From the IMG/VR virus record IMGVR_UViG_2651869755_000012: DNA of 7,600 nucleotides; one strand, 5' to 3'. How positions within the stretch are numbered: position 1 is the first letter of the stretch; every line of letters starts with the position of its first letter. Source of the DNA: a virus. Lineage: Duplodnaviria; Heunggongvirae; Uroviricota; Caudoviricetes. Positions 1 through 7,600 of the stretch are shown in pieces. Below the pieces are notes generated by a model. The model worked only from the letters and a program-made list of their open reading frames with translations. It was not told where the DNA came from and did no database searches. Made by a program: the position numbers and the translations under genes.

Positions 1-2
1 TT

Positions 3-188
3 ACCGAAACGCAAGCAGATGAGCTGATTTTTCCGTCCCTTCGCAGGGCAAACCTGGCGCTGCGCAGGGCGAAAAGTGATGTTCAGAAGTGGGAGCGAGT
101 CTGCGCCGCGCTGCGGGAGCTGAACAAGCACCGGGATATTGTTCGACAGATTACTGATTCTTCCCGCCGTGTTGTATCGGAAAAGTGA
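3..188 (+). CDS. 3' end of an upstream phage gene of unknown function (C-terminal 61 codons; 5' end lies outside the window)
   Basis: Open frame from the window edge (codon phase starting at nt 3) to TGA at 186-188; tail reads ...LRRANLALRRAKSDVQKWERVCAALRELNKHRDIVRQITDSSRRVVSEK. Same strand and tight spacing with the next gene. No motif recognised. Confidence 0.45.
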   Translation, partial: TETQADELIFPSLRRANLALRRAKSDVQKWERVCAALRELNKHRDIVRQITDSSRRVVSEK

Positions 189-203
189 TTGCCGGAGGCG
201 CTT

Positions 204-629
204 ATGGCAAAAGTATTTACACAAGAAGAGCGGGAAAAAATTAAAGGGCAGGTTGTTGAACTTGTACGTCTGAGCGGTCGCGAGACGTTGCGGCAACTGG
301 AAGCCAAGACAGGTGCGACAAGATATCTGATGAGTGTTCTCGCCAGAGAGCTGGTTGCCAGTGGCGATGTATACAACTCTGGTTACGGGTTATTCCCGTC
401 TGAACAGGCGCGTAAGGACTGGCAAAATGCTCGCAAAAAACTCTCAAGGGCAAAGGTGAAGAAACCTGCAGTGGTTGATCCGGACCTTATCTGGTCGTTA
501 CCAGACGGCGAAATACGCCGCTACGACAGGCGCCTGAATATAATCTGTCGCGAGTGCCGGAAGAGCGAAGCTATGCAGCGTGTACTGGCATTTTATCAAG
601 GAAATGTTAGGTATTTTAGACGTTACTAG
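204..629 (+). CDS. Hypothetical phage protein (141 aa), function unknown
   Basis: ATG at 204 preceded by GGAGG (193-197) at good spacing; the six-frame ORF 189..629 starts at an upstream TTG which I do not favour. Basic C-terminus; no catalytic motif recognised. Confidence 0.55.
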   Translation: MAKVFTQEEREKIKGQVVELVRLSGRETLRQLEAKTGATRYLMSVLARELVASGDVYNSGYGLFPSEQARKDWQNARKKLSRAKVKKPAVVDPDLIWSLPDGEIRRYDRRLNIICRECRKSEAMQRVLAFYQGNVRYFRRY

Positions 630-782
630 ATTAAAGAGCATTAGTTCAGATGTGAATTGACATTTTCATGGCGCAGGGTAGAGCCAGCGTGGTTGTCCGC
701 TTTGCGTCAAAACCAGATATTACCAGATTTAGACATATATTCCCGATAGCCCTGCTCTGATGCTACACTCTGTGCTATTTTC

Positions 783-1469
783 ATGACCCCAATAAAAATA
801 TTTATGACTATTGCTGATTTCAAACGGCCTAAATTGGAGCTCCCAAACGGGGCAAACAAACTACTACTGCACTCTTGCTGTGCTCCATGTTCCGGTGAAG
901 TGATGGAGGCGCTTCAGGCCTCGGGAATCGACTACACCATCTTTTTCTACAACCCGAACATTCATCCTCAGAAAGAGTATTTAATTCGTAAGGATGAAAA
1001 TATTCGCTTTGCTGAACAACACGGCGTGCCGTTTATCGATGCTGATTACGACACCGACAACTGGTTTGAACGTGCCAAAGGAATGGAATGGGAGCCTGAG
1101 AGGGGGATCCGTTGTACCATGTGTTTTGACATGCGTTTTGAGCGGACAGCGTTGTACGCTGCTGAAAATGGTTTCAGTGTGATCAGCAGTTCACTGGGCA
1201 TTTCACGCTGGAAAAATATGCAGCAGGTTAACGAGTGTGGGCGGCGAGCTGTTGCGCATTATCCGGGTATGGTGTACTGGGATTATAACTGGCGCAAGCA
1301 GGGCGGCTCGTCCCGTATGATTGAAATCAGCAAGCGCGAAAAATTCTATCAGCAGGAATATTGTGGCTGTGTGTATTCTCTGCGCGATACCAATCTACAC
1401 CGCAAATCTCAGGGACGCCCTCTTATCAAAATTGGCCAACTCCACTACGGAAAAGAAGAGAAGGAGTGA
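783..1469 (+). CDS. queH: QueH-type epoxyqueuosine reductase (DUF208 family)
   Basis: Translation carries the Cys motifs I associate with DUF208/QueH: [11 protein letters not shown] (CCAPC at nt 876-890), CTMCFDMRF and YCGCVYSL. Length 228 aa fits the family. Start could alternatively be the ATG at 804; neither has a strong SD. Confidence 0.75.
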
Positions 1470-1501
1470 TTTTATGGATCACCTTTCTGATTGATTTCAT
1501 A

Positions 1502-1530
1502 TTGGCGAGGTGACGTGAGTTAAGTAGAAT
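1502..1530 (+). promoter_or_regulatory. Putative sigma70 promoter of the hok mRNA (TTGGCG -17- TAGAAT)
   Basis: -35-like TTGGCG at 1502-1507, 17-bp spacer, -10 TAGAAT at 1525-1530. Predicted start near 1537 falls on GCTGCGGGTGCTTGAGGC, which resembles the 5' end of plasmid R1 hok mRNA (GGCGCTTGAGGC) as I recall it. Confidence 0.5.
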
Positions 1531-1599
1531 GGCTGCGGGTGCTTGAGGCTATCTGTCTCAGGCATGAACACTGAAAGGCAGATAGAGAAAAGCCCCAGT

Positions 1600-1667
1600 T
1601 AACATTTCGCGTCCTGCAAGACGCTTAACATTAATCTGAGGCCCAATCTATGTCTCACAAATGTAGG
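1600..1667 (-). ncRNA. Putative Sok-like antisense RNA (position inferred, ends uncertain)
   Basis: On the minus strand, TTGCCT (complement of + 1697-1702), 17-bp spacer, TAACCT (complement of + 1674-1679) form a weak promoter that would transcribe antisense across the mok-like start (ATGTCTCAC at + 1650). This matches the architecture of hok/sok loci. No clear terminator was found, so the 3' end is a guess. Confidence 0.25.
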
Positions 1668-1706
1668 TTAGCCTCTTACGTGCCGAAAGGCAAGGGGAAG
1701 CAGGCT

Positions 1707-1862
1707 ATGAAGCAGCAAAAGGCGATGTTAATCGCCCTGATCGTCATCTGTTTAACCGTCATTGTGACGGCACTGGTAACGAGGAAAGACCTCTGCGAGG
1801 TACGAATCCGAACCGGCCAGACGGAGGTCGCTGTCTTCACAGCTTACGAACCTGAGGAGTAA
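1707..1862 (+). CDS. hokD: Hok/Gef family type I toxin (51 aa), HokD-like
   Basis: MKQQKAMLIALIVICLTVIVTALVTRKDLCEVRIRTGQTEVAVFTAYEPEE: single N-terminal transmembrane helix and the conserved family core. From memory this matches E. coli HokD/RelF closely. An in-frame upstream ATG at 1650 (ORF 1650..1862) corresponds to the mok-like start; AAGGGGAAG lies ahead of the ATG at 1707. Confidence 0.85.
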   Translation: MKQQKAMLIALIVICLTVIVTALVTRKDLCEVRIRTGQTEVAVFTAYEPEE

Positions 1863-1930
1863 GAGACCCGGCGGGGGAGTAATCTCCCGCCACCTCTGAT
1901 GTGCCAGGCATCCTCAACGCACCCGCACTT

Positions 1931-1951
1931 AACCCGCTTCGGCGGGTTTTT
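1931..1951 (+). terminator. Rho-independent terminator ending the hok transcript
   Basis: Hairpin CCCGC-TTCG-GCGGG (1933-1946) followed by TTTTT (1947-1951). Confidence 0.7.
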
Positions 1952-1962
1952 GCATTAGTCTG

Positions 1963-1992
1963 GTTGACAAAAATAGAAAAATGCGAAAATAT
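1963..1992 (+). promoter_or_regulatory. Putative promoter of the two-gene insert (consensus -35 TTGACA)
   Basis: Perfect TTGACA at 1963-1968; weak -10 candidate AAATAT at 1987-1992 (18-bp spacer) inside an A-rich tract; the first ATG of the module is at 2028. Confidence 0.4.
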
Positions 1993-2027
1993 GTGGTTTA
2001 CGAATTCTAAAAAAAGCGAAACTTGAA

Positions 2028-2678
2028 ATGAATGAAAATCAGTTAGCTCCTTGTTGGGAATTTCAACCTTATCTTGCTGAAAACTATGTTCGCCACTTGT
2101 TGGCGGAGATCGCTAACGTACTTGAGCAGCTGTACTATCATAAGCACGCATTAGACAGCAACTGGTCTGAAGGTGTAAGGGCTTATGATTGGGTCAGAAA
2201 TCATCTTATTCAAAATGAAGATGCAATTCCTGGCCTTGAGATGATTTCCAAGGGGTTGGACTATGTAGTTGCTTTAAATAAAGTTCCGCTACAATTTACC
2301 AAAGATTGCATTAATAACCCCAAAAAGAAACATCGTCTGCGTCGAAATAAAGTAGAGTATGAGCAGCTCTCATTGTTTGGTGATGTTGAGGCTGAGCAAG
2401 ATATTACATGGCGAGTCATAGCTGAGCCTTTTTTATCCGAAGAGGGCGATGGTGAATTAGAGTCCACACTGCCTCGTTGGGAGGTAGCTCTTGTTGGATT
2501 TAATACTTATGGTGCTCAGATTAGTATAGTTTCTCATCAATCTACAGCATCGATGCCGCTTATGCCTCTTGATTATAACACACTCCCTGACGAAGCGGAG
2601 ATTAATAAGGTGCCTCTTCGTCGGCGTACGAAGGATAAAGATTTGGATGTGAGCAGTGATGGAACATCAGGTGAATAA
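2028..2678 (+). CDS. Unknown-function protein (216 aa), first gene of a two-gene module with the downstream HTH-peptidase
   Basis: Long ORF in an AT-rich segment, ATG at 2028, stop TAA at 2676-2678 overlapping the next gene's start by 20 nt. Acidic protein with a basic patch (KKKHRLRRNK); no transmembrane segment or catalytic motif recognised. Confidence 0.6.
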   Translation: MNENQLAPCWEFQPYLAENYVRHLLAEIANVLEQLYYHKHALDSNWSEGVRAYDWVRNHLIQNEDAIPGLEMISKGLDYVVALNKVPLQFTKDCINNPKKKHRLRRNKVEYEQLSLFGDVEAEQDITWRVIAEPFLSEEGDGELESTLPRWEVALVGFNTYGAQISIVSHQSTASMPLMPLDYNTLPDEAEINKVPLRRRTKDKDLDVSSDGTSGE

Positions 2679-3762
2679 CTTCACTGAGTATCGGGGTGAT
2701 AAGCTCAAACTAGCGAGAATGGCTGTTGGGCTTTCTTGTGAAGAGTTAGCCGAAAAAATTGGCAAGACAAAGCAATTCGTTAGCAAACTGGAGAAGGGGT
2801 GCAGGCCATCGGAGCAATGTCTTGAGTTAATATCTTCAGCGCTTATGATTAAGTCCAGTTTTCTTTTTACTGAACGAAAATACGCTCTGGAAAGTGATGT
2901 CTGCCATTTTCGGAGTAAGAAGTCCAGGACTCAAACGCTGACTAATAGTGTATTGGCCAGGGCTGAGATTCTTAATATTATAATTTCTGCTGTTGAAGGT
3001 GAAATCGAATTTCCTGACGTTAACATACCGGAGCACCCAGGGGCTGAATTACTTACTCCGAATGATATTGAGCGAGTGGCAGAAGATTGTCGCCGTGCCT
3101 GGAATTTAGGTCTTGGCCCTATATCATCAATGGTTAAATTGGCGGAGAGTTTAGGGGTAATCGTTGCGCATGTTACGGGAGTCGATGATCGTGTTGATGC
3201 TTTTACTGTTCACAATAACAGGCCTGTTATCATCAGGAACAATGTTAAAAAAAGCATATGTAGATTTCGCTCTGATTTAGGTCATGAATTAGGGCATTTA
3301 GTAATGCATGAGGGCATAACGACAGGTGATAAACTTACGGAATCACAAGCCGATCACTTTTCGAGCGCCTTATTAGTTCCCAGGTTATCTTTCATTAAAG
3401 AATTTCCACGAATACGAGGTAAGCAATTCGACTGGAATGCTCTGGTTGAATTTAAACTTAGATGGAAAATCAGCCTTAAAATGTGTATTTATCGAGCCAG
3501 CGCATTAGGCTTATTGACCCAGGAACAGGCAAGAACTGGCTATATGCATCTTAATTCCAGAGGGTATACGAGAGTTGAACCTGGTGATGAACTTTTGCGC
3601 CCTGAAGAACCCGGCATGCTGGCCGAGGCGATTGAAATGCTGGATGATGCAACCTGGCTAAGAATTCTTATGAAAACTGGCTTGAGCCAAGATTTAATTC
3701 GTGAGTTGTTCTCCATCAACAGACCTATTACAAATCCAAGAAATATTTTCCAGATTGTTTGA
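2659..3762 (+). CDS. Fused XRE-family HTH / ImmA-IrrE (COG2856, M78-like) zinc metallopeptidase, 367 aa
   Basis: N-terminal XRE-type helix-turn-helix (LARMAVGLSCEELAEKIGKTKQFVSKLEKG) and a central HEXXH zinc site (HELGH at nt 3283-3297, within DLGHELGHLVMHEG), plus about 150 aa of C-terminal extension. ATG at 2659 (GTG at 2656 also possible); stop TGA 3760-3762. Confidence 0.8.
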   Translation: MEHQVNNFTEYRGDKLKLARMAVGLSCEELAEKIGKTKQFVSKLEKGCRPSEQCLELISSALMIKSSFLFTERKYALESDVCHFRSKKSRTQTLTNSVLARAEILNIIISAVEGEIEFPDVNIPEHPGAELLTPNDIERVAEDCRRAWNLGLGPISSMVKLAESLGVIVAHVTGVDDRVDAFTVHNNRPVIIRNNVKKSICRFRSDLGHELGHLVMHEGITTGDKLTESQADHFSSALLVPRLSFIKEFPRIRGKQFDWNALVEFKLRWKISLKMCIYRASALGLLTQEQARTGYMHLNSRGYTRVEPGDELLRPEEPGMLAEAIEMLDDATWLRILMKTGLSQDLIRELFSINRPITNPRNIFQIV

Positions 3763-3766
3763 GTAT

Positions 3767-3787
3767 ACCCGCTTCGGCGGGTTTTTT
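3767..3787 (+). terminator. Rho-independent terminator after the two-gene module (same hairpin as at 1932-1951)
   Basis: CCCGC-TTCG-GCGGG (3768-3781) followed by TTTTTT (3782-3787); the 20-mer ACCCGCTTCGGCGGGTTTTT is identical to 1932-1951. Confidence 0.7.
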
Positions 3788-3806
3788 GTTTTTATTTTCA
3801 ACGTGT

Positions 3807-3836
3807 TTGAAGTTTTGGACGGTGCCAGAATAGAAT
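3807..3836 (+). promoter_or_regulatory. Putative sigma70 promoter (TTGAAG -18- TAGAAT)
   Basis: TTGAAG at 3807-3812, 18-bp spacer, TAGAAT at 3831-3836, upstream of the ORF starting at 3872. Confidence 0.4.
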
Positions 3837-3871
3837 CAAAAATACTTAAGTAGCGCGCAGGGAGAAGAGGG

Positions 3872-4093
3872 ATGGACCCCGAACAGGGGGAGTGCTATTT
3901 ATCTGGAAGGATTCTGTTGATGAAAATCGAAGAATTACGTGAAATTTTTAGTGAAGATGGCCTCTATGCTGTGCGCGTTGAGAATGGGGGTATTACCTAC
4001 ACAGCGTTAATTCCTGATGATCATGTAGTGTTATCTGTTGAGGCATTCATTGAATACTTGGAAAGACTCGGTTTCAAGGTAGTTCGGGAATAA
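3872..4093 (+). CDS. Small hypothetical phage protein (73 aa; alternative start ATG 3920 gives 57 aa)
   Basis: ORF with GGAG at 3861-3864 ahead of ATG 3872; the internal in-frame ATG at 3920 has GGAAGGA at 3904-3910. No motif recognised. Confidence 0.45.
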   Translation: MDPEQGECYLSGRILLMKIEELREIFSEDGLYAVRVENGGITYTALIPDDHVVLSVEAFIEYLERLGFKVVRE

Positions 4094-4152
4094 GTTATAA
4101 TACGTGAGCCAGCCTGAACAACTGGCAACCTGCAGCGCCATTGGAGATGACA

Positions 4153-4425
4153 ATGGCGCATAATTTCAAATTTCGCAATTCTGATTCTGCCTTTGCCAGC
4201 AGGCACGGGTGGCGTTCTCACGCATTCAAATATGACTGGTATCAGCACGATCCCTGTACTGAAGAACAGGCCGAATGGCTGATTCATAACTACCGCAGAC
4301 GTGGATATGAGTTTAGGAAAGCCCTCACCCTCGATTATCGTCACTGGATAATCTACGTCAGACTCCCTTATTCCGAACGCCCACCGCGTCCGTCCCGCAC
4401 ATTCCAGCAACGCATCTGGAGGTAA
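4153..4425 (+). CDS. Hypothetical phage protein (about 90 aa)
   Basis: ORF 4141..4425 in the track (TTG start); I prefer ATG 4153 with TGGAGA at 4142-4147. Stop TAA 4423-4425 lies 1 nt before the next gene's GTG. Trp/Arg/His-rich; no motif recognised. Confidence 0.4.
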   Translation: MAHNFKFRNSDSAFASRHGWRSHAFKYDWYQHDPCTEEQAEWLIHNYRRRGYEFRKALTLDYRHWIIYVRLPYSERPPRPSRTFQQRIWR

Positions 4426-4426
4426 C

Positions 4427-5473
4427 GTGCGGGTATTACTTCGACCTGTTCTGGTACCGGAACTCGGGCTGGTGATCGTTAAGCCGGGCCGTGAATCCAT
4501 GCCGGTATTCCACAATACCCGGGTACTGGTGGAGCCGGAACCGAAAAGCATGCGTAATCTGCCGTCCGGGGTCGTTCCTGCCGTTCGCCAGCCGCTGGCG
4601 GAGGATAAATCATTACTGCCATTTTTCAGCGACGAACGAGTGATTCGTGCTGCTGGTGGCGCTGGCGCATTGTCTGATTGGTTACTGCGCCATGTTAAAT
4701 CCTGCCAGTGGCCACACGGCGATTATCACCACAGTGAAACCGTCATTCACCGTTATGGTACCGGCGCAATGGTGTTGTGCTGGCACTGCGACAACCAGCT
4801 GCGCGACCAGACCTCCGAATCACTCGGGCAACTTGCTCACCAAAACCTGTCTGCATGGATGATTGACGTCATACGCCATGCAATGAATGGCTCGCAGGAA
4901 CGGGAATTATCGCTGGCTGAATTATCCTGGTGGGCGGTCCGCAATCAGGTGGCGGACGCGCTACCGGAAGCGGTATTACGTCGTTCGCTGGGGTTGCGTG
5001 CGGAAAAAATCCGCTCAATGTACCGTGAAAGCGACATCGTACCGGGAGAGCAGACCGCCACCAGCATACTGAAGCAGCGCACAAAAAATCTTGCGCCGCT
5101 GCCTCACGCCCACCAGCAAAACCCGCCACAGGAAGAGACGGTGGTCAGCATTGCCGTTGATCCTGAGTCTCCGGAATCTTTCATGAAACGACCTAAACGT
5201 CGCCGCTGGGTTAACGAGAAATACACACGCTGGGTGAAGACACAGCCGTGTGCGTGTTGTGGTAAGCCAGCCGACGATCCCCATCACCTGATTGGTCATG
5301 GTCAGGGCGGAATGGGGACAAAATCTCACGATATTTTCACGCTACCGCTGTGTCGGGAGCATCACAACGAGCTTCATGCGGATCCTCTGGCGTTCGAAGA
5401 AAAGCATGGTTCTCAGGTTGATTTAATTTTTCGTTTTCTTGATCACGCCTTTGCAACTGGCGTGCTTGGGTAA
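4427..5473 (+). CDS. DUF968 family phage protein (YdfU-like) with C-terminal Cys/His nuclease-like motif
   Basis: GTG start at 4427 preceded by GGAGG (4418-4422). C-terminal region KTQPCACCGKPADDPHHLIGHGQGGMGTKSHDIFTLPLCREHHNELH resembles the YbcO/DUF1364-type motif found in DUF968 proteins of lambdoid prophages. Position (upstream of rusA and Q) matches Qin-type prophages. Confidence 0.7.
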   Translation: MRVLLRPVLVPELGLVIVKPGRESMPVFHNTRVLVEPEPKSMRNLPSGVVPAVRQPLAEDKSLLPFFSDERVIRAAGGAGALSDWLLRHVKSCQWPHGDYHHSETVIHRYGTGAMVLCWHCDNQLRDQTSESLGQLAHQNLSAWMIDVIRHAMNGSQERELSLAELSWWAVRNQVADALPEAVLRRSLGLRAEKIRSMYRESDIVPGEQTATSILKQRTKNLAPLPHAHQQNPPQEETVVSIAVDPESPESFMKRPKRRRWVNEKYTRWVKTQPCACCGKPADDPHHLIGHGQGGMGTKSHDIFTLPLCREHHNELHADPLAFEEKHGSQVDLIFRFLDHAFATGVLG

Positions 5474-5485
5474 AAGAGGTGACTG

Positions 5486-5845
5486 ATGCTCATAGATTTG
5501 GTTTTACCTTACCCGCCGACGGTGAACACTTACTGGCGACGCCGTGGCAGCACATATTTTATCTCGGAGGAGGGAAAGCGTTATCGCCGGGCTGTGGCGC
5601 TTATTGTTCGCCAGCAGCGGCTGAAATTAAGCCTGTCCGGAAGGCTGGCGATAAAGGTGATTGCAGAGCCACCGGATAAGCGCCGCCGCGACCTGGACAA
5701 TATCCTGAAGGCACCACTGGATGCGCTGACGCATGCCGGACTACTTATAGACGACGAGCAGTTTGATGAAATCAATATTGTGCGCGGTCAGCTCGTTCCT
5801 GGTGGGCGGCTGGGGATAAAAATCACAGAACTGGAGTGCGCATGA
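5486..5845 (+). CDS. rusA: RusA Holliday-junction resolvase (crossover junction endodeoxyribonuclease)
   Basis: 119 aa; PYPPTVNTYW N-terminus and PDKRRRDLDNILKAPLDALTHAGLLIDD match the RusA active-site region (PDRRRRDLDN in DLP12 RusA as I recall). SD AAGAGGTGA at 5474-5482. Confidence 0.85.
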   Translation: MLIDLVLPYPPTVNTYWRRRGSTYFISEEGKRYRRAVALIVRQQRLKLSLSGRLAIKVIAEPPDKRRRDLDNILKAPLDALTHAGLLIDDEQFDEINIVRGQLVPGGRLGIKITELECA

Positions 5846-6531
5846 ATAACCAGTATTTACAGTTTGTGCGTGAGCAGCTCATTATCGCCACCGCTGATTT
5901 GAGTGGGGCAACAAAAGGTCAGCTTGAAGCCTGGCAGGAGAATGCCATGTTCGATACAGGGCGTTACAGGCGTAAAAAAATCCGGTACCGCGATGAAGTG
6001 ACCGGAAAAATGATAACGCGGGATAATCCACCAATCCCGGGAAAACAATCGCTGGCGAAGGGGACGTCAATTCCTCTGGTCAGTCAGGTTGCTTTTTCTA
6101 CATCATCATGGCGGCGGGCTGTTTTGTCTCTTGAAGAACATCATAAAGCCTGGTTGTTGTGGTGTTACAGCGGAAATACTTGCTGGGAGTATCAGATCGC
6201 GATAACGCAGTGGGCATGGACAGAATTTAAGACTCACTCTGGTACCAGGAAAATTGCAGGGAAGACACAGGAACGCCTGAAAAAATTAATCTGGCTGGCT
6301 GCACAGGATGTCAGGAGATGGGTTATAGGACATGATATCTACCAGCAACAGGAGCTTGCCCGTCTGTGTGGGATTAAGCCTGACAACTGGAGCCACAATT
6401 ATGTGAGCTACTGGCGTGAAATACTCGACATTTTTATGAACCTCGATACCGAATCTCTGATTTGCACTGTGAAAAGGAGATCTCAACAAAAAGCGGCATT
6501 TTTGCAGCGAGATATTGCAAAAGTCAATTAG
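5842..6531 (+). CDS. Putative Q-like late antiterminator (229 aa)
   Basis: ATG at 5842 overlaps the rusA stop (ATGA, 5842-5845). The gene sits directly downstream of rusA and directly upstream of an intergenic terminator, the canonical place for Q in lambdoid phages. Assignment is by position and size; no diagnostic motif was verified. Confidence 0.5.
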   Translation: MNNQYLQFVREQLIIATADLSGATKGQLEAWQENAMFDTGRYRRKKIRYRDEVTGKMITRDNPPIPGKQSLAKGTSIPLVSQVAFSTSSWRRAVLSLEEHHKAWLLWCYSGNTCWEYQIAITQWAWTEFKTHSGTRKIAGKTQERLKKLIWLAAQDVRRWVIGHDIYQQQELARLCGIKPDNWSHNYVSYWREILDIFMNLDTESLICTVKRRSQQKAAFLQRDIAKVN

Positions 6532-6578
6532 ATAGCATATATTTTATGTAAATGTGATATATTGCTGTAAAGTGTATA

Positions 6579-6605
6579 AACCCGCTCAAATGTGCGGGTT
6601 TTTTG
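6579..6605 (+). terminator. Rho-independent terminator (tR'-like) downstream of the Q-like gene
   Basis: CCCGC (6581-6585), 8-nt loop, GCGGG (6594-6598), then TTTTTT (6599-6604). An AT-rich promoter-like stretch at 6532-6580 precedes it, with a TATAAA-like hexamer at 6575-6580 (promoter not confidently resolved). Confidence 0.6.
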
Positions 6606-6677
6606 CTTAACTCTGTGGACCTTTTTATCTGTAGTTGTAATATATGGATATTGTTACAATTTAGGTCGGTGAGCTTA

Positions 6678-7355
6678 ATGGAAGAACAGCACGGTAATTA
6701 CTTTATAAAACGAATTCAGTTGATTGGAAGAGGGGCATTTGGCTTTGTTGAACACGTTAAGGTTTACAACCTCAATAAAGGTGAATGCGGGGATTATGCT
6801 AGAAAGGTTTTAGCACCCGAAAAACCAGAGCTTTTGGCGCAAATAGAGCAGTTTAGAAGGCGTTTTAAAAGGGAGGTTGTGTATCAATCACATTGCGTAC
6901 ATAGCAATATTGTTCCTATTTATTTGTGCGATTTGTTTGTTGAGAATCCATGGTTCATTATGGATAAAGCAGAATGTGATCTTGAGCACGAAATAACGAA
7001 CAACCTTCTTACAACAGATCAAAAAATTTCAATAGTGAAAATGGTATTAGATGGTGTAGCTTACATCCATGCCAAAGGCTATTTACACAGAGATATAAAA
7101 CCCTTTAATGTTTTGCGATTTAGCGACGGAACATACAAGGTGTCTGATTTTGGTCTGGTAAAAGATACGAATCCCGAAGGGGATACCACTAAATTGACCG
7201 AGATCGGTACCCGTATGGGAAGTACAAGATATATGGCTCCCGAGATTTTATATAATGCAGAGTATTCAGTTAAGACTGATGTTTATGCTGTGGGACGGTT
7301 AATTGAAGACTTAAATTTAGATGATAAAAAAATAAAGCCTATCATAGCTAAGTGA
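6678..7355 (+). CDS. Eukaryotic-like Ser/Thr protein kinase (Hanks-type), probably C-terminally truncated by IS insertion
   Basis: Gly-rich loop IGRGAFG (6723-6743), catalytic loop HRDIKPFN (7086-7109), DFG (7146-7154) and APE (7236-7244). ATG 6678 follows GGTGAG at 6668-6673; the track's TTG 6603 start lies inside the terminator. Only about 35 aa follow APE, and the stop TGA 7353-7355 is the first 3 bases of the IS terminal repeat. Confidence 0.75.
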   Translation: MEEQHGNYFIKRIQLIGRGAFGFVEHVKVYNLNKGECGDYARKVLAPEKPELLAQIEQFRRRFKREVVYQSHCVHSNIVPIYLCDLFVENPWFIMDKAECDLEHEITNNLLTTDQKISIVKMVLDGVAYIHAKGYLHRDIKPFNVLRFSDGTYKVSDFGLVKDTNPEGDTTKLTEIGTRMGSTRYMAPEILYNAEYSVKTDVYAVGRLIEDLNLDDKKIKPIIAK

Positions 7356-7600
7356 ACCGCCCCGGGTTTCCTGGAGAGTATTTTATCTGTGAACTCAGGC
7401 TGCCAGATCATCGTTTCCGATGGAAGCATAATAAGCTTTTTCTGCTTCTGCCGGAGGAGTATGGCCCAGCCTTTCCAGCAATCGTCGATTGTTATACCAG
7501 TCCACCCACGTGAGTGTGGCCAGTTCCACTTCTGCACGGTTTTTCCAGCTCTTACGGTGTATTACCTCCGCTTTGTAAAGACCATTGATGCTCTCCGCCA
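7353..7600 (-). mobile_element. Terminal part of an IS3-family insertion sequence (IS629/IS1203-like), extends beyond the window
   Basis: Terminal inverted repeat begins TGAACCGCCCCGGGTTTCCTGGAGAG at 7353; the minus strand encodes the C-terminus of an IS3-family transposase. I recall both as IS629-like. Confidence 0.8.
7395..7600 (-). CDS. IS3-family transposase OrfB, C-terminal fragment (5' end outside the window)
   Basis: Minus-strand translation ...AESINGLYKAEVIHRKSWKNRAEVELATLTWVDWYNNRRLLERLGHTPPAEAEKAYYASIGNDDLAA, stop (complement of 7395-7397). WVDWYNNRRL...LGH is the conserved C-terminal motif of IS3-family (DDE) transposases. This is a different frame from the track ORF 7283..7537. 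Confidence 0.8.
   Translation of the reverse strand, partial: AESINGLYKAEVIHRKSWKNRAEVELATLTWVDWYNNRRLLERLGHTPPAEAEKAYYASIGNDDLAA

Follow-up and report, generated by a model that had tools for sequence, protein, structure and literature searches.

The closest mechanistic precedent for the locus described here is the PeSL motif of T4-type phages, a terminator/promoter joint at which genes are shuffled by recombination and for which mini-circles have been demonstrated (PMC2839356, Arbiol et al. 2010; PMC4122927, Comeau et al. 2014). The locus lies in a 7,600-nucleotide stretch of DNA from a virus of the Caudoviricetes (IMG/VR record IMGVR_UViG_2651869755_000012), which is referred to in full as the window and which is the early-right (nin) region of a lambdoid Escherichia coli prophage. 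Within the window, a gene pair that matches the RosmerTA anti-phage toxin-antitoxin system stands between two exact copies of a 20-nucleotide predicted terminator hairpin, designated H, the first of which follows the toxin gene hok.

As at PeSL sites, short repeated intergenic stem-loop motifs flank nonessential, variable genes. In T4-type phages recombination between the motifs explains insertions, deletions, and replacements among close relatives, and the differences between close relatives break in the motif, as they do in 126 pairs of hok-linked loci that encode Doc proteins and in the comparison of the window with its relative L001. The resemblance extends to the architecture of the joint because a promoter-like site is found within 12 to 20 nucleotides after each copy of H (1964-1969 and 3807-3836), an arrangement suggestive of a composite terminator/promoter joint. 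There are also differences. PeSL motifs occur in about 100 copies per genome in virulent T4-like myoviruses and have a conserved strong promoter inside the repeat, whereas the unit shared at the H locus is the 20-nucleotide terminator only, present in one or two copies per locus in temperate lambdoid prophages and associated with defense or toxin-antitoxin cargo. Furthermore, PeSL mini-circles were shown experimentally, whereas a circle at the H locus is hypothetical. The PeSL papers make no mention of lambdoid or temperate phages. We regard a lambdoid analogue of the PeSL shuffling in T4-type phages as the best explanation for the H joint.

Morons, whose original definition is reportedly due to Hendrix and colleagues, are similar to the RosmerTA cassette in that they are present or absent between the same neighbors, deviate in base composition, and have functions that benefit the host. 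Such elements have been reviewed as autonomous transcription units comprised of a promoter, one or more genes, and a factor-independent terminator (PMC3594210). The usual account of morons is illegitimate recombination, and the concept does not predict that the terminator should be an exact copy of that of the neighboring gene or that many morons should share one bracket at a single site.

The idea that lambdoid phages recombine at linkers is said to go back to Susskind and Botstein and to Clark et al. According to this modular theory, homologous recombination at short conserved linker sequences joins unrelated DNA, although linkers are said not to be identifiable at most lambdoid mosaic boundaries (PMC3029335). 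In the window, in contrast, the linker is explicit, is a predicted functional terminator, and would have been duplicated by the exchange.

Defense hotspots in P2 and P4 prophages and satellites also resemble the H locus. At a fixed position in the backbone, diverse defense systems swap quickly without mobility genes, through a recombination process that is stated to be unresolved (PMC9122126; PMC13586616). These hotspots differ in phage family and in position, and no terminator or hairpin joint has been reported for them. In the literature, of which coverage was partial, we found no account of a cassette hotspot located behind hokD, a result that is not proof of novelty. The cassette in the window is ordinary. 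The interesting part is its joint, an exact 20-base duplicate of a terminator that surrounds at least seven types of cargo and marks recent breakpoints.

The duplicated hairpin and the cassette between its copies

The 20-mer ACCCGCTTCGGCGGGTTTTT is located on the + strand at 1932-1951 and again at 3767-3786, with no mismatch between the copies, and no third copy is present in the window even when 3 mismatches are allowed. Dinucleotide shuffles (n = 200) gave an expected count of 0.01, and none of the 200 contained two or more matches. The repeat finder reported the same pair as family D3 (20 nucleotides, 100% identical, spacing 1835) and did not extend it further. The original prediction, that two identical 20-bp hairpins stand as direct repeats about 1.8 kb apart, is thus borne out by exact matching and by repeat finding.

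Both copies are on the list of terminator-like elements of the window. Each is composed of ACCCGC, a UUCG loop, and GCGGG followed by a U-run, and the RNA of each is predicted to fold into a GC stem of 6 to 7 bp beneath this loop, with energies of -15.1 kcal/mol (z -3.6) for copy 1 and -10.9 kcal/mol (z -2.7) for copy 2. The T-run contains five T's in copy 1 and six in copy 2. The DNA farther downstream differs (GCATTAG... after copy 1 versus TGTTTTT... after copy 2), and the part that the two sites have in common is the 20-nucleotide hairpin only. Copy 1, 70 nucleotides past the hok stop codon, is predicted to act as the intrinsic terminator for hok and would mark the real 3' end of its mRNA; it is also the left boundary of the cassette. 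Copy 2, which begins 4 nucleotides past the rmrA stop codon, is the predicted terminator of the cassette and its right boundary.

The two genes between the hairpins are on the + strand and overlap by 23 nucleotides, with rmrT upstream. The product of rmrT (2028-2678; 216 amino acids) matches the PADLOC model for the RosmerTA toxin RmrT (PDLC03929, 4.6e-25) over profile positions 5 to 195 of 198 and has no match in Pfam. The product of rmrA (2656-3762; 368 amino acids) matches the model for the antitoxin RmrA (PDLC03943, 6.2e-105) over profile positions 2 to 342 of 370. It combines an N-terminal helix-turn-helix (HTH) domain (Pfam HTH_3, 5.2e-7) with an M78/ImmA-IrrE zinc peptidase domain (Peptidase_M78, 6.4e-11), both above cut-offs, and the HExxH motif is present in its translation as HELGH. 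RosmerTA is an established defense family in which a variable toxin, RmrT, is paired with an ImmA-protease antitoxin, RmrA (PMC10440598; preprint 10.1101/2022.05.11.491447, Millman et al.). Judged by its matches to both PADLOC models, the insert is a RosmerTA module, a regular two-gene pair with nothing unusual in the system itself, and it would be expected to function in anti-phage defense.

In E. coli FDAARGOS_1249 (locus L008, 4786-5754, corresponding to about window position 2150), the insertion sequence (IS) IS5 lies in rmrT and inactivates the toxin gene; rmrA is intact and the locus is otherwise 100% identical. This insertion is compatible with a costly toxin but proves nothing.

A 5' control region on the + strand (1952-2027) precedes the genes. 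It includes a -35 hexamer, TTGACA, at 1964-1969, the conserved sequence CGAAAATAT at about 1984-1992, and the leader up to the ATG of rmrT, and it is kept in all cassette classes down to 68% overall nucleotide identity. Even at that level of divergence the leader at 1961-2030 (GGTTGACAAAA...CGAAAATAT...GGTTTACGAATTC..AAAAAAGCGAAACTTGAAATG) is almost invariant, and it contains a repeated GCGAAA motif. The leader is probably a promoter combined with an operator to which the HTH domain of RmrA would bind for autoregulation. The candidate -10 sequences are weak (AAATAT at 17 nucleotides or GAAAAT at 15 nucleotides from TTGACA), and the site was not called in a promoter scan of the window. The earlier claim that the insert carries its own TTGACA promoter is therefore upheld with respect to the hexamer, which is kept in all relatives, and weakened with respect to the rest of the promoter. 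The suggestion that the insert is a moron is apt for a segment that lies between two genes adjacent in related phages, is present or absent among relatives, has a lower GC content, and combines a perfect, conserved -35 sequence with a terminator of its own that is predicted with confidence.

The insert was also expected to be more AT-rich than the flanking genes, and the GC content in windows and at third codon positions (GC3) agrees. The GC content of 1952-3766 is 41.5%, compared with 49.1% for 1-1931 and 51.9% for 4095-6531 (Mann-Whitney p = 2e-6 for insert versus flank over 100-bp tiles), and GC3 is 0.35 to 0.38 in the insert genes and 0.50 to 0.58 in the flank genes. However, the low-GC stretch does not end at the second repeat, because positions 3787-4094, which are outside the insert, also have a GC content of 41.6%. 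To equate the AT-rich block with the insert is thus wrong at the right end, where 3787-4094 (+ strand) is a resident rem-like module with a promoter-like site (3807-3836) and a 73-amino-acid short Rem variant (3872-4093). The module is considered resident because its homologue directly follows the hok hairpin in cassette-free phages, including K-12 Qin (3767-3987/3994, 90-95% identity). The same short-rem arrangement is found without the cassette in L196.

Empty sites, other cargoes, and breaks of identity at the hairpin

The window was compared with 5,426 complete E. coli genomes and with viral contigs from IMG/VR. The occupied allele, defined as at least 80% of window 1400-4500, is held by 232 of the 5,426 genomes, and most of the others have hokD and the DUF968 gene with different content between them. 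A search for the cassette between the same two hairpins yielded about 33 viral contigs in addition to the 232 complete genomes. When aligned by blastn, window 1..1952 and the sequence from 3767 onward fall on one and the same hairpin in prophage Qin of K-12 (L007) and in L002, L003, and L005 (the two matches in L007 are at 1501-1760 and 1740-1957). The sequence of this empty site is ...GCACCCGCACTTA-ACCCGCTTCGGCGGGTTTTT-GTTTTTATTTTCAAC..., in which a single hairpin is preceded by the left flank of copy 1 and followed by the right flank of copy 2. An allele with the precise deletion made in silico (hok-H-short rem) aligns as one unbroken piece in complete E. coli genomes; the best match has 100% coverage and 96.7% identity, and coverage is 80% or more in 62 genomes. 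Thus, as had been predicted, deletion of one repeat and the intervening DNA joins hok to the nin-type genes as in Qin, and the junctions in the four insert-free prophages fall exactly at the repeat. All of the checks suggested with the original prediction gave favorable results.

Relatives of RmrA in IMG/VR can be grouped by nucleotide identity to the window. Class A (99-100%) is found in the hok context with both hairpins. Class B (94%) has the same left junction as the window, a right hairpin with a TACG loop and four T's, and a flank type without rem. For class C (78-81%), found in other lambdoid phages, and class D (68-69%), homology to the window is limited to about 1930/1961-3762, and the promoter and leader region is strongly conserved. 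The same genes without the repeat at their junctions, an arrangement that the original prediction had named as contrary to it, are found only in these diverged cassettes (68-81%) at other sites, where the bounding terminators are different ones that share the stem type.

Cargo behind hok is not restricted to RosmerTA. The 3' ends of hok in viral contigs were sampled with a 15-nucleotide anchor located just upstream of the hairpin (n = 93), and the length of the interval was measured to a landmark, the ATG of a 94-amino-acid open reading frame (ORF). No cargo was present in 34 of the 93 ends (anchor-landmark distance, 101-102 nucleotides), 29 had rem-type modules (387-487 nucleotides), 12 had larger cargo, and in 18 the landmark was absent. 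The same hairpin was found 3' of hok in 76 of the 93. At least six cargo types besides that of the window are each closed by a second H. Two are RosmerTA systems, one of the same subfamily (L208; RmrT 7e-93, RmrA 4e-201) and one of another subtype, with a 1-nucleotide variant of the right hairpin (L272). The others are an HTH protein with a separate M78 peptidase (L187), a small ORF with a Fic/Doc protein in one variant (L119) and in another that has a 1-nucleotide variant of the right hairpin (L110), and a lipoprotein-like ORF followed by a relic of about 100 bp that resembles the rmrA 3' end (L207/L006). In the last of these the left hairpin copy is truncated (ACCCGCTTCGGCG followed by TTTT). 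Including the RosmerTA cassette of the window, seven cargo types are bracketed by H at the hok site.

Within the first 60 nucleotides past the hok anchor, the loop of the hok terminator in L264 and L217 holds a palindromic insert of about 26 to 29 nucleotides (TTAACCCGCTTC, AGCGCTGATTTATGGGGATCCCTCAGCGC, and TTCGGCGGG in succession), forming a hairpin within a hairpin.

To the right of these cassettes the sequence resumes as if no cargo were present. When the 40 nucleotides after the right H were compared, ungapped and in register, with the 40 nucleotides after the single hok H of cargo-free phages, identity was 92.5% for the window cassette, 90% for the class B cassette, 95% for L187, 92.5% for L119, and 100% for L207. 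The right flanks of L208 and L272 belong to the same family but with an indel, and the right flank of L110 had no match among the sampled cargo-free loci. The number of T's in the right copy varies with the type of right flank. No cargo family has bases of the hok 3' untranslated region upstream of the right H, and therefore the duplicated unit is exactly the hairpin.

The position of recent breaks was apparent from cassettes that are nearly identical to one another. Among the Doc loci with hok and two hairpins (n = 37), 126 pairs show a break of identity after the right H: the cassettes are at least 98.5% identical over 820-828 bp and the DNA is unrelated from the first base past the hairpin. 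For example, the cassettes of L283, L284, L285, and L286 are 98.8-99.8% identical and are followed by four different right flanks (ATTGTGCGGCGTAG..., GTTGCGTGCTGAATATGC..., GTTGTTTATTTTCGGTG..., and GTTTTTTCTGCGTATTCTGG...), flank types that also follow the single hok hairpin in cargo-free phages. A break at the same place is found in L001, which is 99.6% identical to the window over 1-1950 and diverges right after H; past the hairpin neither the cassette nor rem is present, and the alignment continues at just 86.5% identity. These results suggest that the hairpin is a recurrent joint for the swapping of different defense cassettes in related prophages, of which hundreds were compared.

A chance repeat, already rejected by the shuffles, had to be reconsidered because the 20-mer is a generic terminator sequence, and the question was settled by the junctions and by the local background. 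The background sample comprised 652,969 bp of hok-anchored prophage loci with the hok-to-landmark interval left out. The 14-nucleotide core of H (CCCGCTTCGGCGGG) had 0 occurrences on either strand in this sample, and none of the 57 other CCCGC-loop-GCGGG terminators in it has the UUCG core.

Recombination within the hairpin and alternative explanations

To the observed anatomy, junction positions, recurrence, and break of identity exactly at H we attach the following mechanism, with a probability of about 0.6. The hok terminator is proposed to serve as a short homologous linker, and cassettes would enter, change backbones, and presumably leave by recombination within the 19 to 20 bp of H. In the most likely form, a donor with the structure hok-H-cassette-H would recombine with a recipient hok-H-flank through a long arm in hok and a 20-bp arm in H. 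Alternatively, and perhaps with equal likelihood, an excised circle of cassette plus H might integrate by a single H x H crossover. Either route would leave exactly one extra H and nothing else (hok-H-cassette-H-flank), and an H x H crossover in the opposite direction would precisely remove the cassette. Once in place, the cassette would be transcribed from its own promoter. Copy 1 would end the hok mRNA, insulating the cassette from hok transcription and shielding the cassette promoter, and copy 2 would terminate the rmrTA transcript just before the promoter-like site of rem. The site behind hok would then be a hotspot for the exchange of toxin-antitoxin and defense cassettes among lambdoid prophages, with the hok terminator as the module linker.

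Terminator activity of the H copies and promoter activity of the cassette leader are predictions from their sequence. We infer the enzymology, which may be phage Red/RecT-type annealing, RecA, or template switching at the hairpin, as well as the direction of the events. The original prediction had allowed for a moron either inserted at a terminator or recombined through it. Of the two, recombination is favored over a single insertion event, given that the same bracket surrounds no fewer than six other types of cargo at this place.

Several points weigh against recombination within H. Efficient pairing reportedly needs a segment of at least 23-27 bp with Red-beta and of at least 31-34 bp with RecA (PMC3945230), and therefore exchange events at the 20 bp of H should be rare. 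The locus counts are drawn from IMG/VR contigs, which are redundant, and do not equal numbers of independent events. In class A, the block of 99% identity (about 1472-3994) is larger than the cassette; thus, this particular cassette recently spread with hok via ordinary flanking homology and not via H. A precise excision of very recent date was not found (the best empty allele is 96.7% identical), nor was an array with three or more H copies among 301 locus strands. The left junctions of class C cassettes have non-identical hairpins, even an AT-rich one in the L159 group. Therefore, left junctions are not always driven by homology in H, and selection for insertion right behind a terminator could be a contributor. 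In addition, L339 (4672-5565) has an ORF of 249 amino acids of the HNH/AP2-like homing-endonuclease type together with the exact 20-mer between gpL-like and gpK-like tail genes, whereas in a close relative, L347 (4689-4702), the gpL/gpK-like genes are 12 nucleotides apart with no hairpin. Thus, a cassette can bring H with it to a site that, when empty, has no hairpin. Finally, the sequence of H is that of a generic, common terminator, and the exact 20-mer recurs in more than 100 unrelated phage contexts. At least 120 IMG/VR stretches include it, and among the IMG/VR matches listed, hok is upstream in just 18 of 124 occurrences and the occurrences not linked to hok are mostly just upstream of tail or structural genes.

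These last two points are also what would be expected if the two terminators were independent, an explanation that we consider unlikely. In this case, each cassette would carry a 3' terminator of the same design and would have been inserted illegitimately, with selection having kept only those insertions that fell in the few permissive bases between the upstream terminator and the next promoter. The repeat would be a by-product. Illegitimate recombination followed by selection is the standard account of phage mosaicism (PMC3029335). Moreover, diverged Rosmer cassettes elsewhere always end in AACCCGC-loop-GCGGGTTTTTT, with stop-to-hairpin spacers that can be aligned, and it therefore looks as though the ancestral cassette already had a terminator with this type of stem. 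The terminator at 6578-6601 of the window has the same stem as well.

However, the loops argue for a different conclusion. The UUCG core, present in 0 of 57 generic-stem terminators elsewhere, is found in all seven hok-site cargoes, bar the 1-nucleotide variants, and the same cassette families at other sites carry other loops. For example, the loops at the 3' ends of class C cassettes are TATAT, CATTG, TGCTT, TGCAT, or TTCAT. The exception in class C is L166, which lies against a gpM-like tail gene and carries the exact 20-mer also present in other phages at that site. Because the Rosmer relatives elsewhere have other loops and L166 has the 20-mer of its tail-gene site, the hairpin appears to track the site and not the cassette. 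The Doc cassettes are also difficult to reconcile with independent terminators. Doc relatives outside hok phages (73-78% amino acid identity) have the exact core downstream too, but there, at the tail-gene site, it is preceded by a separate terminator and a 25-nucleotide spacer and is joined to three different right flanks, whereas Doc at the hok site abuts H directly. H was therefore not inherited with the Doc 3' end. Furthermore, the duplicated unit is exactly H, the flank is in register in five families, and H is the precise point at which cassettes with 99% identity to one another pass into at least four unrelated flanks.

A second locus behaves in a similar manner. The upstream gene of the L164 context is present in L282 with its own terminator, and homology to L164 stops just after that terminator; the downstream flank of L282 belongs to the family found to the right of L159-type cassettes. 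L282 was the one informative relative in the search, made via the upstream gene, for an empty site of the L164 context.

The 20-mer was also observed outside hok phages in many of the loci L009-L128, just upstream of tape measure, gpM-like, and tailspike-like genes, followed by a common T-run and a TTGCCYGGAG ribosome-binding context. In L101 it occurs twice in one tail operon (- strand, 4987 and 11578). Late operons may hold a second family of hairpin-bounded cargo sites.

It seems distinctly improbable that the hok terminator was duplicated once, in an ancient event, and that cargo was later swapped between fixed copies in an inherited bracket. Rosmer-type cargoes do share (G)CAT right before the right H (GTAT in the window, GCAT in class B, GCATA in L208, TCAT in L272, and GCAT in the L207 relic). 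The approximately 100 bp like the rmrA 3' end that L006/L207 keeps before the right H indicates that replacement of cargo inside an existing bracket does occur. However, the Doc and HTH/M78 cargoes share no sequence with Rosmer cargoes, and right flanks of at least four unrelated kinds adjoin the same bracket. Swapping cargo with both H copies intact would still need crossovers in H, and therefore an ancient duplication reduces to recombination within H, as proposed above, for all steps but the first.

Another possibility, to which we give little credence, is that the hok terminator is a dedicated cassette-exchange site, an integron-like platform. Circles of defense genes plus hairpin would re-integrate at any copy of H, and a phage recombination function or the structure of the hairpin would catalyze or stimulate the exchange.

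A dedicated enzyme is very improbable. Such a hairpin-recognizing recombinase or nuclease would integrate cassette plus H at H and produce a true target-site duplication, either in an integron/attC-like manner or by staggered cuts flanking H, similar to the way in which CRISPR repeats are duplicated. In several independent cargo types the duplicated segment coincides exactly with the 19- to 20-nucleotide hairpin, the cassettes, comprised of genes plus a 3' hairpin, resemble an ORF with its attC site, and site-specific recombination was left open by the PeSL authors (PMC4122927). Potential enzymes are also at hand: nearby genes encode RusA (5486-5845) and, at 4427-5473, a DUF968 protein for which a weak HNH-like match was obtained, and an HNH-type homing-endonuclease ORF travels with H in L339. 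However, RusA and DUF968 are conserved backbone genes that are present with or without a cassette, no integrase or transposase was found in or adjoining any cassette, and the cassette ends have no inverted repeats. The absence of arrays with three or more H copies, the truncation of the left copy in L006/L207, T-run lengths that differ between copies and follow the flank type, and the non-identical bounding hairpins at other sites (L164, L175) also argue against an enzyme that recognizes the hairpin.

We rejected a transposon with target-site duplication (the only two ORFs are both RosmerTA, with no transposase and no terminal inverted repeats), an integron gene cassette (the window has no integrase, no locus among the 301 strands has three or more H copies, and attC sites are far longer than H, with its 6-bp stem and tetraloop), and RNA-mediated (retro) transfer (the mobile unit includes the putative promoter upstream of the transcript start).

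Surroundings of the site and significance

On the left side of the window, DUF977 (189-629) is followed by QueH, an epoxyqueuosine reductase homologue (783-1469; PF02677, 1.1e-65). QueH is a complete, single gene in the prophage early region, adjoining DUF977, and has the same position in L001, L002, and L008. The sok/hok regulatory region, which covers the 5' portion of the hok mRNA along with the region of the antisense RNA Sok (1537-1712, + strand), was identified with Rfam RF01794 (120.5 bits versus a gathering score of 59; E = 7.8e-28), and the Rfam scan of the window gave nothing else above threshold. The mok/hokD frame (1650-1862, + strand; hokD itself at 1707-1862) encodes a type I toxin (Pfam HOK_GEF, 3e-23), and the gene is annotated as hokD in the identical locus L008. 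Thus, the features of a hok/sok type I locus are present: a Hok/Gef peptide, the Sok region, and a terminator hairpin downstream. Content to the left of hok varies too. One strain has Kiwa (KwaA/KwaB) between QueH and hokD (L002 1779-3418), and this system was discarded as an alternative cargo behind the hairpin because its position is upstream of hok instead. In K-12 Qin, relBE is directly upstream of hokD (L007 917-1443; PMC6379469). Therefore, hok sits between two cargo sites.

To the right of the rem-like module, the landmark region (4095-4425, + strand) is where phages without rem realign, with blastn to L004, L006, and L001 resuming at window 4095-4110. It includes the landmark ORF of 94 amino acids (4141-4425), which precedes the DUF968 gene. 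RusA is followed by the antiterminator Q (5836-6531) and then by the terminator at 6578-6601, the third of the window. A Leu_leader candidate at 6502-6604 was rejected as sub-threshold in Rfam (27.4 bits versus a gathering score of 50), the signal being the terminator hairpin after Q.

A second low-GC accessory unit (6578-7355, GC 0.372; L008 10345-11849) begins after Q with this terminator. It encodes a Ser/Thr kinase (Pkinase 2.8e-33; best PADLOC matches mad6 and PD-T4-6), and in FDAARGOS_1249 the kinase is followed by a PP2C phosphatase. On the basis of these matches, the unit, located at the classic moron position past Q, is likely a kinase-based module for defense. The window ends, immediately beyond the stop codon of the kinase gene, with a fragment on the - strand (7395-7600) that resembles the C-terminal end of an IS3-family transposase ORF (WVDWYNNRRL...). 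The identical locus L008 has the phosphatase gene at this position, and an IS insertion or truncation at the window end in the source strain is probable.

For lambdoid prophages, the site behind hok provides a concrete, testable answer to the question of how defense systems move without mobility genes. If the hok terminator were an integron-like platform, which we doubt, this would explain the movement of defense systems between hotspots, including the tail-gene sites that have the same 20-mer. The locus also bears on the old dispute between homologous exchange at linkers and illegitimate recombination followed by selection, because it is one of the few explicit lambdoid linkers. The arrangement of a hok terminator and, farther on, a second copy of that terminator provides a sequence rule for harvesting candidate defense and toxin-antitoxin cargo from thousands of E. 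coli prophages.

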